Shown: positions 9,175-62,167 of the stretch, in pieces
Layout: each line of letters starts with the position of its first letter
Position numbering within the stretch: the first letter of the stretch is position 1
IMG/VR virus record: IMGVR_UViG_3300021256_000087
Span: 1 to 64,000 of that record
DNA: 64,000 nucleotides
Reading direction: 5' to 3' (one strand)
Source of the DNA: a virus
Taxonomy: Duplodnaviria; Caudoviricetes
The notes under the pieces: generated by a model
Seen by the model: only the letters and a program-made list of their open reading frames with translations
The model's database searches: none
Told to the model about the DNA's origin: nothing
Program-made: the position numbers and the translations under genes

Positions 9175-9519
9175 ATGTCCGAAGATCGCAACTGCCCCAA
9201 TTGTGGGGCGCCATATGATGTGAAATTAAGCAAATGCCCTTATTGTGGAACAAGTTATTTTGATCTAAGTTGTTTACAAATAGGAGATAAACCTTTTTAC
9301 TTAAAGATTAAGGATCCCGCAAGAGGCATTATATTCACACAAAAATGCTATTTGAAAAACGTGGATGTCTCAATAGAATCTCATGATACATATGCTGATA
9401 GTCCATTTGGATGCAAATCATTTGCTATGTGCACTAGTCGCGATTTGACAATAGATTTAAGTCTTGAAGCTGTTGCTGAAAATGACAAACTTATGACAGT
9501 TATAAAGGAGGATACATGA
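9175..9519 (+). CDS. Zinc-ribbon protein
   Basis: CPNCG...CPYCG at the N-terminus. Confidence 0.7.
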   Translation: MSEDRNCPNCGAPYDVKLSKCPYCGTSYFDLSCLQIGDKPFYLKIKDPARGIIFTQKCYLKNVDVSIESHDTYADSPFGCKSFAMCTSRDLTIDLSLEAVAENDKLMTVIKEDT

Positions 9520-59154: not shown

Positions 59155-59511
59155 TTACATCTGTTCGACTTTACGCTTCATCTCTTCGATTTGACGCATC
59201 ATCTGTTCTTTGTCCATATGTCCGCTAGCGCCATCATCACGACTGGTGTAACGTCCCATTGAATCTCTTCCTCTGCGAGCCTGACTATAATCGTCACGAT
59301 AATATCTGCGAGCATTACTATAATCATCGTAGTAGTTGCCAGCATATGATCCACCAGCTTCTTCCATTGCTTCTATAGTTTTAATGTCCTTGATAATATC
59401 AACAGCCTTGTATGCTCTTTCGAGTTCAGTAGGAGAGATATCGTTCTTTTGATTCAATCTTTTAATCTCATCTTTGAGATTATCACAAAGATCATATAAT
59501 TCATCCATCAT
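59155..59511 (-). CDS. Cassette protein 6 (unknown function)
   Basis: 118 aa, RRGRDSMGRYTSR motif. Confidence 0.75.
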   Translation of the reverse strand: MMDELYDLCDNLKDEIKRLNQKNDISPTELERAYKAVDIIKDIKTIEAMEEAGGSYAGNYYDDYSNARRYYRDDYSQARRGRDSMGRYTSRDDGASGHMDKEQMMRQIEEMKRKVEQM

Positions 59512-59529
59512 AATAACTTTCCTCCTCTC

Positions 59530-60006
59530 TTAGGCAATTCGTGTAACAGTAAGATTAGCATTCTGAACAAGTATTGCGGGTGCGGGCACCGTTGCGGGTG
59601 TTGCACTCTCAGAAGTATTCTCAACGCTAACATTCATGCAGCAACATTTAGGAACATCAATTATTGCAGTTGACGTAACATTAAAGAAATTATTCTGAGT
59701 AGGAGGATCTGCAGCTACTGCTGCGGGTGTGACAATTGCCCTACTAGTAAGGATGGGCTCTCCGTCCAGTGCAAGACTTACACTTATTGGCCCAACGGTA
59801 GTTCCAGTGGGAACTGCTATATTGCCGTTAAAGGTGACCTGATATCTAGCGAATCCACAAGGACTGTTAGAAATGCCACGGAGAGTTACAATACCACTTC
59901 CATTCCTGTGATATATCGATCCCTTATTGCAGCCGATACTCGTATTAAGAGTAACGGGCTGATTGGGTTGAACGACCTGATATTCGTTCTTCGTAAACTC
60001 AGCCAT
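59530..60006 (-). CDS. Cassette protein 5, Cys-rich beta-sandwich (BclA-C-like, tentative)
   Basis: 158 aa, YQVTFNGNIA, KCCC motif. Confidence 0.75.
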   Translation of the reverse strand: MAEFTKNEYQVVQPNQPVTLNTSIGCNKGSIYHRNGSGIVTLRGISNSPCGFARYQVTFNGNIAVPTGTTVGPISVSLALDGEPILTSRAIVTPAAVAADPPTQNNFFNVTSTAIIDVPKCCCMNVSVENTSESATPATVPAPAILVQNANLTVTRIA

Positions 60007-60018
60007 AGTCGTACCCCC

Positions 60019-61073
60019 TTAAATTAAAGAGGTACCACCGTTACATCCACATCCGTTACCGCATGTGAATATAGGGGTTCTGCCATATACCGGAGTGCTG
60101 GGCACGGGGCAACTAGAAAGTCTATTATAGAGTTGATCAACCTCATCGCTGAATCCCTGCTGAATGAAAGCATTCTGTGCAGTCTGAGATTCGCGGAGAG
60201 CAGCCATATTGAGCTGACTTCTTAAGTTGTCGTTCTCCCTCTTGTAGCCATCCAGCTCGAGCTGGCAAAGTTTATCGAGGATAGACTGAGTATTTGCAGC
60301 ATTAGCAGATCTGGTAGCACAAGCTTCAGTTGCGATGGTATACTTTACATCGGCAGTAGCTGCTCTATTATCGCAGCAACACTGAGCAAGCTGTGACTGG
60401 ATCGCATTCAGCCCCTGAGTAGAAGCGGTCTGAGCTGCAAAACTTCTCTCCATATCAGCAATCTGATTGGAGAAGAGTTGAGTAGAGATGTCGCCAATAC
60501 CATCTCTTACAGAGGTGATATTGTCATTTATCATAGCGTCTCTATAGGTACCATTTGTATTCGCATTAATTCCTGACTGTCCATTAAGGATCCAAGGGAA
60601 GTCGTTGCCTCCACCGAATCCACCATTTCCCCATCCGTTACCCATGATAGCGAAGAGGAAGAGTATAACCCCAATATGTTATCGCGCAGACTTTTTATTC
60701 CGCGCTTCTTGCGCTTTTATTCGCACAAGTTCAGCATATCTTTTCAACTATTTAATGCATATAATATAAATGTTTGGACGCGTTTTATTCTTTTCTGTTC
60801 GGCTTCAATCAACTATGTTTAAATAGTTGTCGCAGCCTCGTGGGCACATTGTATTCTGTTTCCAGTTTCAGTGCCTATGCGTTGCGCATGACTGTACTTT
60901 TACATACAGCCTTCTGCTCGGATTTGCGTTTCAGCATTCCCGCTTAATTCTGCGATTTAAAGTTGGCAAGTTTTTGTTCACCAACCGTCTCCGCCAAATC
61001 CTGAATTTCCGTAGCCTCCGCCGTACGCGGGAGCAACAGGCATATACATGCCGTTTGAATCTGTAAGTGCCAT
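60019..61073 (-). CDS. Cassette protein 4, spliced: exon 1 61073-60980, exon 2 60671-60019, 248 aa
   Basis: RBS GAAAGGAG and ATG 61073; joining the exons restores ...GFGGDGW-W-VILFLFAIMGNGWG...; Gly-rich TM region, QCCC coiled coil. Confidence 0.85.
60672..60979 (-). mobile_element. Group I intron (IA-like), 308 nt, no homing endonuclease ORF
   Basis: P1 GTTGGT/GCCAAC with U.G at the 5' splice site; terminal G; P3 TCGCAG/CTGCGA; P7 ACGCATA/TATGCT; P8 11-bp CAACTATTTAA/TTAAATAGTTG; P10 AACTT/GGGTT. Confidence 0.9.
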
Positions 61074-61144
61074 AATGATTCTCCTTTCAACAATAAGGTT
61101 TACAGTTATATATCAAAATCACTTATGCGCAATCGTGATTGATA

Positions 61145-61369
61145 TCAAAGCCTAATGCCCATACTGCGGGCTTGTTGAATTAAGTAGTTCAAATTTCCTT
61201 GAGACATACTTCCATTGTTTAGTAAATACTGTATAGCTCCTTCTGGATTGTACATATACTGTTGTGGTATATTTACATTATTCTCCATTAAGAACTGCAT
61301 TGGATTTCCTTTAAATCTTTGAAATTGTCCCATCAATCCCTGTACTCCATATGGATTAGGGTTTTGCAT
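61145..61369 (-). CDS. Cassette protein 3 (Asn/Gln/Met-rich)
   Basis: 74 aa, NP.GAIQYLLNNGSMSQ motif. Confidence 0.7.
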   Translation of the reverse strand: MQNPNPYGVQGLMGQFQRFKGNPMQFLMENNVNIPQQYMYNPEGAIQYLLNNGSMSQGNLNYLIQQARSMGIRL

Positions 61370-61790
61370 TATTTGCTACCTCACTTTTAGAATCATTGTT
61401 TCTCTGCGGGTAATTCTGTTTATTTCTATTGTTCTGAAGCGACAACACAGATGTCTTTAATGAATCCATATCTGACGCTAACTTCTCAACAATAGATGCC
61501 ATATAATCCTTTGTGACATAATTATCTTCTTCCTTTTTAACCTCTTCCCTTTTGATCATGTCGTATATTTCAAATACCGGCGCCTCCAGCTGAGAGAACC
61601 CCTGTGTCTTAATGCACACTATGGGCTGATTCTCAATCTTAAAGGTTACGACATTGCCGAGTCCGACAGGATAGTTACGCGCATACTCAACACTCGATGC
61701 TTCCATAACCCATCTGTTCATGACGGGTTGAGAAGGCATTTGCTGCTGAGCGTAGCCGTAAGGATTTTGTGGATAATTATTCATTGCCAT
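61356..61790 (-). CDS. Cassette protein 2
   Basis: 144 aa, ARNYPVGLGN motif, C-terminal coiled coil. Confidence 0.7.
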   Translation of the reverse strand: MAMNNYPQNPYGYAQQQMPSQPVMNRWVMEASSVEYARNYPVGLGNVVTFKIENQPIVCIKTQGFSQLEAPVFEIYDMIKREEVKKEEDNYVTKDYMASIVEKLASDMDSLKTSVLSLQNNRNKQNYPQRNNDSKSEVANNAKP

Positions 61791-62167
61791 CGGCTCCCTT
61801 CAAAGAAGTAGACTGGGATCTCGTCACCGGAATCCCAAGTATCATAGTAATCACCGTCGATTACACATACAACGTGACTACCAGTTGCCAATAAAAATTT
61901 TCCATAAGGATTATCGTAACAAAAATCTCTAATTGTATAACAATCCGGACACGAGTTCGGGATCACCCTTTTCTTGTATCCAATCATTTTCAGATACGTC
62001 ATCCATACTTCGTTAGAAGAGGGCATGTCATACATTTGTCTACCGAGCTTTGTTATTTGATCATATGTATATTCCCATGATGTATCTGTTAATATAGAGA
62101 TTCCTCTTATGACACAATCCCCAACAAGGTTTTTTATTGGATTAGGATTTTTATAAATATATGCCAT
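61781..62167 (-). CDS. Cassette protein 1, putative C39-like cysteine peptidase fold
   Basis: GDCVIRGI (Cys) ... SHVVCVIDG.YYDTWDS (His/Asp). Confidence 0.6.
   Translation of the reverse strand: MAYIYKNPNPIKNLVGDCVIRGISILTDTSWEYTYDQITKLGRQMYDMPSSNEVWMTYLKMIGYKKRVIPNSCPDCYTIRDFCYDNPYGKFLLATGSHVVCVIDGDYYDTWDSGDEIPVYFFEGSRWQ

Follow-up and report, generated by a model that had tools for sequence, protein, structure and literature searches.

The question raised by this locus is whether the two reading frames at positions 60019-61073 of the window (the whole 64,000-nt stretch of viral DNA analysed here) are separate genes, the remains of one gene, or the exons of one gene that is expressed through splicing. 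The first frame (exon 1, Table 1) has an SD-like sequence, GAAAGGAG, at 61088-61081 ahead of its ATG. Read unspliced beyond GGDGW, it meets a TGA at 60980-60978, which spans the 5' splice site. The second frame (exon 2), translated from 60669, reads VILFLFAIMGNGW... as far as its stop at 60019, and no SD-like sequence was found before its internal ATG at 60645. The versions in public protein sets begin at exactly this ATG and are 208 aa long (P0002-P0004), and a separate 31-aa ORF is called from exon 1; this is the truncation by ORF callers that the initial annotation had described. When 60979..60672 was excised in silico by a scripted DNA splice, T and GG were joined into a Trp codon, a frame of 248 codons was obtained, and the predicted ligated junction read ...GACGGTTGGT/GGGTTATACTC.... 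Shifting both cuts by one base in the 3' direction results in the identical mRNA, but places G instead of U at position -1. We prefer the cut given in Table 1 because it alone provides the U at -1 that group I chemistry requires. The initial annotation, made from the sequence before any search, had exon 1 plus one T running into TGA, and every coordinate and number that it gave for this held. It had also described the intron as lacking an ORF, and indeed no ORF of ≥60 aa lies on the intron strand inside it. In our reading, for which confidence is high, a real IA-type group I intron that has an additional P7.1 arm is inserted in a phage gene of PHROG 16490; this intron probably splices, and most likely derives from one with an endonuclease gene.

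Table 1. Features of the interrupted gene and its intron. Position p of the intron is found at window coordinate 60980-p.
Feature	Window coordinates	Strand	Intron positions	Details
Host gene	60019..61073	-		exon 1 + intron + exon 2
Exon 1	60980..61073	-		ATG at 61073; 31 codons (MALTD...GGDGW) + T at 60980, first base of the split Trp codon
Intron	60672..60979	-		308 nt, no ORF; terminal G at 60672
Exon 2	60019..60671	-		starts GGGTTATA; GG finishes the Trp codon, then VILFLFAIM..., 216 codons + stop
P1 hairpin	60961..60986	-	13-19 (guide)	exon GGUUGGU (60986-60980) with guide GCCAACU (60967-60961), 7 bp
P10	60972-60968 with 60671-60667		8-12	AACUU with exon 2 GGGUU; directly beside G13
P3	60830..60955	-	25-30/145-150	encloses P4, P5, P6, P6a, J6/7, P7 5' strand and P7.1
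P4		-	38-41/58-61	
P5		-	44-46/53-55	
P6		-	63-65/92-94	
P6a		-	69-76/83-90	
J6/7		-		GCAA
P7, 5' strand		-	100-104	
P7.1		-	105-109/133-137	5 bp
P7.1, inner helix		-	115-117/122-124	GAAA loop
P8	60745..60829	-	151-161/225-235	11 bp; closes a 63-nt loop (162-224, 60818-60756)
J8/7 and P7, 3' strand	60734..60744	-	236-241 and 242-246	AAAAGA and UAUGC
P9	within 60672..60729	-	251-257/266-272	
P9.1	within 60672..60729	-	275-281/290-296	conserved loop AUAAAAAG
3' tail	up to 60672	-		GAUAACAUAUUG + terminal G at 60672; tail motif common to the intron family

A search with exon 2 matched at least 8000 relatives, and the host protein family is therefore very large. The three closest matches (96-100% identity) were 208-aa truncated calls, and the next ones, at ~78% identity and below, had lengths of 245-295 aa. 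Full-length homologues aligned as ...GGFGGDGWWVILFLFA(L/I)MGNGWGN.... Exon 1, which aligns with the N-termini of the uninterrupted homologues, ends in DGW, exon 2 opens with VILFLFAIM, and the split codon is the second W. The insertion point lies between the first and second base of this second Trp codon, in a conserved DGWW motif. With DGW-W-VILFLFA at the spliced junction, the predicted ligation product corresponds exactly to the ...GGDGWWVILFLFA... of uninterrupted homologues. The nearest uninterrupted allele (L008) carries GGTTGGTGGGTTATACTC, which consists of the last 7 exon-1 bases and the first 11 exon-2 bases of the window, all 18 bases being identical; the intron-less site of this allele is the sequence around GGTTGGTGGGTTATAC. 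The claim that removal of 308 nt restores TGG and a 248-aa protein is thus confirmed by uninterrupted alleles, in their protein as well as their DNA sequences. Furthermore, the PHROG 16490 profile matches exon 2 from profile position 38, which indicates that the called ORF is without ~37 N-terminal residues, or about the size of exon 1. Intron-less alleles in relatives, which had been proposed as a check, were found: the site is uninterrupted in 77 of the 80 best IMG/VR relatives, and the intron is also absent from L008 and from one further allele, L009. A metagenome scan with the 30-nt window-specific ligated junction gave no match, and hence neither a close intron-less allele nor a cDNA-like contig.

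Related introns were collected from IMG/VR by a pattern of two conserved elements, and were present on more than 100 viral contigs among the matches listed (loci L010-L110). The family is marked by GCAACGCAUAG ... CCACGAG and, on the 3' side, by AAGAUAUGCUG ... and a GAUAAC tail. A covariance model was built from 37 relatives, with the window and its near-identical alleles left out. This independent model matched window positions 60985-60828 over its full length, with a score of 147.2 bits (E=2.7e-30) and zero non-canonical pairs. A cmsearch with group I models, also suggested in the initial annotation, did not recover the intron: Rfam RF00028 (Intron_gpI) found no match in the window at the gathering threshold, nor in the 851-nt region at E<=10. 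Since RF00028 also misses four related loci, annotated relatives that lie in gyrA, terminase and tail genes given in pieces, this result speaks about the model and not about the sequence. As Rfam's model for group I introns overlooks this large family, too few of the genes that introns split in uncultured phages of the Firmicutes type are probably being called.

A blastn search showed similarity between the 5' half of the insert and non-coding stretches within split phage genes. Related cores were located in the split gyrA of Bacillus phage vB_BsuM-Goe21 (L002, gyrA_1/gyrA_2), in the terminase region of Listeria phage LIS04 (L001), in the major tail protein gene of Staphylococcus phage vB-SscS-F1 (L003), which is given as two CDS, and in the terminase of the gut phage MT835481 (L004). 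These four introns share 69-77% nucleotide identity with the window over the 5' core and form the same helices with compensatory changes, but they reside in other host genes, use other guides, and in most cases have an ORF; none of the records annotates an intron. In the records of Goe21, vB-SscS-F1 and LIS04, the gene pieces flank a 'hypothetical protein' or an 'endonuclease', and the intron cores explain the splits. Several contigs (L004, L021, L075, L091) contain two family introns within ~1 kb; the pair of L004 is found at 2365-2668 and 1488-1645 in the terminase large subunit gene, with ILIVDEF after one of the 3' splice sites. No match to the family model was detected in the T4, SPO1 and Twort genomes, so kinship with the introns of these phages is at the level of the class and not of the sequence family. 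A match of the model in SPbeta (E=0.67) falls in yopX/yopY and was dismissed as chance.

Family membership bears on one alternative description of the locus, in which a structured non-coding RNA lies between two genes that are independent of each other, and the joined-frame match to homologues is the remnant of an old gene split. Mechanical ORF calls do give a 31-aa and a 208-aa ORF. However, the RNA belongs (E ~3e-30) to a family that occurs inside split terminase, gyrA, tail and polymerase-type genes, its boundaries fall within a codon and restore that codon exactly, and its guide pairs with both flanks; we regard the chance that two separate genes are present as very small.

The group I intron reading predicts a defined fold, and this was examined through covariation. 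For the 5' core, the helices recognised in the window sequence (P3, P4, P5, P6, P6a, and P7.1 with its inner helix) were imposed on 40 non-identical cores. As a result, 94.8% of the cells were paired, and 27 of the 32 pairs had changed on both sides. Pairing fell to 33-40% when the partners were slid by 1-3 columns, and shuffles never reached the observed values. For the 3' half, the helices P8, P9 and P9.1 were tested in 31 ORF-less 3' halves, where 91.2% of the cells were paired (29-47% in slid controls) and 18 of the 19 pairs had changed on both sides. For the two halves together, compensatory changes were present in 45 of the 51 tested pairs, and ~91-95% of the cells were paired, compared with 29-47% when the partners were slid. 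P7.1 and its inner helix both covary, and AAGAUAUGCUG, in the J8/7-P7 region, is invariant in 31 relatives. P7 itself (GCAUA/UAUGC) is invariant in the collected family because the search pattern fixed it, and its support consequently comes from one cross-family comparison: in the second intron of the genome (see below) P7 is GACUA/UAGUC, with two compensatory pairs and the G-C pair kept. G100-C246, which is present and conserved and whose neighbouring P7 pairs covary, is a candidate guanosine-binding pair. At the 5' splice site, P1 contains a U(-1).G13 wobble, the U being that at 60980. The initial annotation had listed the core helices as visible, including P7 with its G-C pair, P7.1, P10 and the U.G pair of P1, and this structural reading proved correct at each point that was tested.

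The P7.1 arm between P7 and P3' assigns the intron, as judged from its sequence, to subgroup IA. Within this subgroup, IA2 is the subtype of over half of the group I introns from viruses that a recent database lists (PMC11835236); a literature search on P7.1a found nothing. A P2 helix is absent from the window intron, unlike many of its relatives. A hairpin AUGCG-CAA-CGCAU appeared in the single-sequence fold, and was rejected because it is unconserved in relatives and the stretch is that of J6/7 and P7. The AUAAC of the 3' tail (window 60678-60682) is complementary to GUUAU of exon 2 (+3 to +7, 60665-60669), and in the fold of the single sequence the two pair as a small hairpin that covers the 3' splice site. 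This hairpin is probably a coincidence, since GAUAAC is kept throughout the family while the exons differ.

By the group I paradigm, the primary transcript would fold into a ribozyme, and free guanosine bound at the P7 G-C pair would attack after the U of the P1 U.G pair. The internal guide would then hold both exons through P1 and P10, the terminal G would enter the site, and the exons would be ligated. Only the spliced mRNA would encode the 248-aa protein, and the unspliced mRNA would stop at the UGA across the 5' splice site.

Four diverged homologues (L101, L199, L163 and L171) were found to have a related intron at the codon position of the window intron, inserted likewise after the first base of the codon following ...GW. 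Over all aligned positions, the uninformative P8 loop included, these introns are ~80-84% identical to that of the window, with which they share the logic of the guide sequence, the GAUAAC...UG tail and the terminal G; each of the four has UG as its last two bases. In contrast to the 308 nt of the window intron, their length is 732-756 nt. The P8 loop of L101, L163 and L171 contains an ORF of 154-157 aa, which in L101 matches HNH_3 and NUMOD4, and L199 has an insert of the same size that ends in the same C-terminal residues. In P1 of L163, exon GGAUGGU pairs with guide GCCAUCU, a compensatory change relative to GGUUGGU/GCCAACU in the window. P10 is GGGUU/AACUU in the window, GGAU/AUCU in L101, GGAUU/AAUCU in L163, and AAUCU/AGAUU in L171. 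That P1 and P10 covary with the exons argues for active splicing. Inside the P8 loop of L101, at 9260-9320 on the minus strand, a promoter-like TTGCAA-17 nt-TATAAT and a GGAGG ribosome-binding site stand ahead of the HNH gene, which suggests that this endonuclease is expressed independently of the host gene.

Because the same-site relatives have an HNH gene, or an insert of equal size, in P8 and the window keeps only 63 nt there, the window intron most likely derives from a mobile intron whose P8 loop encoded an HNH endonuclease, and has since lost that gene. In the simplest history, with loss as the presumed direction of change, a mobile intron would have invaded the gene, and the endonuclease gene would later have disappeared in the window lineage. 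Such an ORF-less intron would persist because it splices and because imprecise loss would destroy the gene. The remaining loop of 63 nt is atypical when compared with the 4-12 nt of most ORF-less family members, and could affect folding. Pairwise alignment of this loop with the L101, L163 and L171 endonuclease genes yielded no information, and the loop is untraceable to an endonuclease gene. The idea that the loop arose as a decayed copy of the P8'-P9 segment of the same intron was also discarded, the local alignment being no better than 137 of 1000 shuffles. Within the 83-kb record (66% complete), HNH_3 has its only match in the other intron; there is no sign of mobilisation in trans.

This other group I intron of the genome lies in a YonO-like RNA polymerase gene (L191:13290-14116 region). 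Its core occupies L191:13290-13514 (genome 77290-77514) on the minus strand and is a weak match to the family model (E=6.8e-5). A 172-aa HNH gene is located upstream of the core, at genome 77493-78011, and its product shares 35% identity with the endonuclease of the same-site intron in L101. As a member of a sister family, the second intron resembles the window intron in the CCACGAG element, the P7.1 arm and the GAUAAC tail, but differs in its HNH gene, its P4-P6 region, and its P7, as noted above.

The initial annotation had suggested, from the retention of an intron without an endonuclease, that splicing might gate expression; nothing specific was found in favour of this, and the same-site HNH introns fit the usual cycle of invasion and subsequent endonuclease loss. 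Conditional splicing that controls the timing or amount of the protein, and for which the intron is kept, has been proposed for phage introns in general (PMC11878797, PMC3984707), and the intron is more conserved among three alleles than the synonymous sites of the exons. However, the ribozyme fold alone predicts conservation of the intron, the great majority of the best IMG/VR relatives (77/80) have no intron at all, and those same-site introns that encode an endonuclease behave as in ordinary homing. We consider it unlikely that the intron owes its retention to a control function.

Comparison with closely related alleles is informative as to whether the intron, here taken to be functional, might have died. 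The locus would then be a relic without splicing, a pseudogene whose products would be no more than a 31-aa peptide, a 208-aa protein lacking its N-terminus, or both. Decay of this kind could be marked by the unusually long P8 loop and the missing endonuclease gene, and gene callers do list the two pieces separately. Against this, both exons are open, and synonymous changes exceed non-synonymous ones: between the window and L006 or L007, the exons show 19 or 26 synonymous versus 8 or 7 non-synonymous codon changes, respectively, and all changes in exon 1 are synonymous. The intron differs at 9 sites from that of L006 and at 5 from that of L007. Differences among the three near-identical alleles preserve helix pairing, and the P9 and P9.1 substitutions of L006/L007 run from U.G to C-G or U-A, from G-C to G.U, and so on. 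All core elements fit the family consensus with zero non-canonical pairs, P1 and P10 match the window allele's own exons, and the internal ATG from which a 208-aa protein would be made is preceded by no SD-like sequence. A dead intron is very unlikely on these grounds. The boundaries, the fold, the family membership, and the occurrence of intron-less and endonuclease-bearing alleles are thereby documented, and we infer that the window intron is spliced.

Group I ribozymes have been described in several phage protein-coding genes, namely T4 td, nrdB and nrdD, SPO1 DNA polymerase, and Twort orf142, and in this respect the window intron is alike (PMC3984707, PMC11878797, PMC11835236). Classic IA phage introns often have an in-frame stop just inside the intron, and occur in ORF-containing and ORF-less forms; an extension of the P7.1 type, as present in the window intron, is typical of subgroup IA (PMC3984707, PMC11878797, PMC11835236). 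Introns that lack an ORF, stop codons in frame shortly after the intron begins, and decay of the endonuclease are likewise covered in reviews (PMC3984707, PMC11878797), and the window intron agrees with their picture. The classic introns of T4, SPO1 and Twort were demonstrated to splice, whereas the window intron is known from its sequence alone. Phage group I introns have been found mainly in genes for DNA polymerase, ribonucleotide reductase, thymidylate synthase and terminase (PMC3984707, PMC11878797). The present host gene is a new one for group I introns; the phage protein that it encodes is very common and has at least 8000 relatives. Intron family, host gene and the series of three allele states add new instances but no new kind of element, and the known working of group I introns is unchanged by the window case. 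Its practical value lies in annotation, where a public 208-aa fragment and a 31-aa ORF stand in for a 248-aa protein, an error that is corrected here. In addition, the intron-less, endonuclease-bearing and endonuclease-less alleles at one site constitute a natural series for the homing cycle.

The host protein belongs to PHROG 16490, for which no function is annotated. It had no match in Pfam, and a search of the ESM Atlas returned hypothetical viral proteins only. Its N-terminus is rich in Gly and aromatic residues, and the protein also has one hydrophobic helix, several long helices, and the motifs CCC and CGCG. AlphaFold, applied to a full-length proxy (P0034, 40 homologues), gave a model with a mean pLDDT of 47, which is too poor for a fold search; in this model a hydrophobic helix extends over 32-42, starting at the intron site, and is followed by long helices. 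One could imagine that the intron with its 63-nt P8 loop was co-opted as a switch for timing or dosing a membrane-anchored Cys-rich coiled-coil protein of a conserved 'spore-coat-like' cluster, with a 31-aa Gly-rich peptide made from the unspliced RNA, but we judge this very unlikely. Genes of the host family always stand beside genes of PHROG 20016, 28802, 3754 and 22984 (window neighbours at 59155-62167; L008 85-1566), and in L008 a GH25/CW_7/LysM endolysin is encoded five genes upstream.
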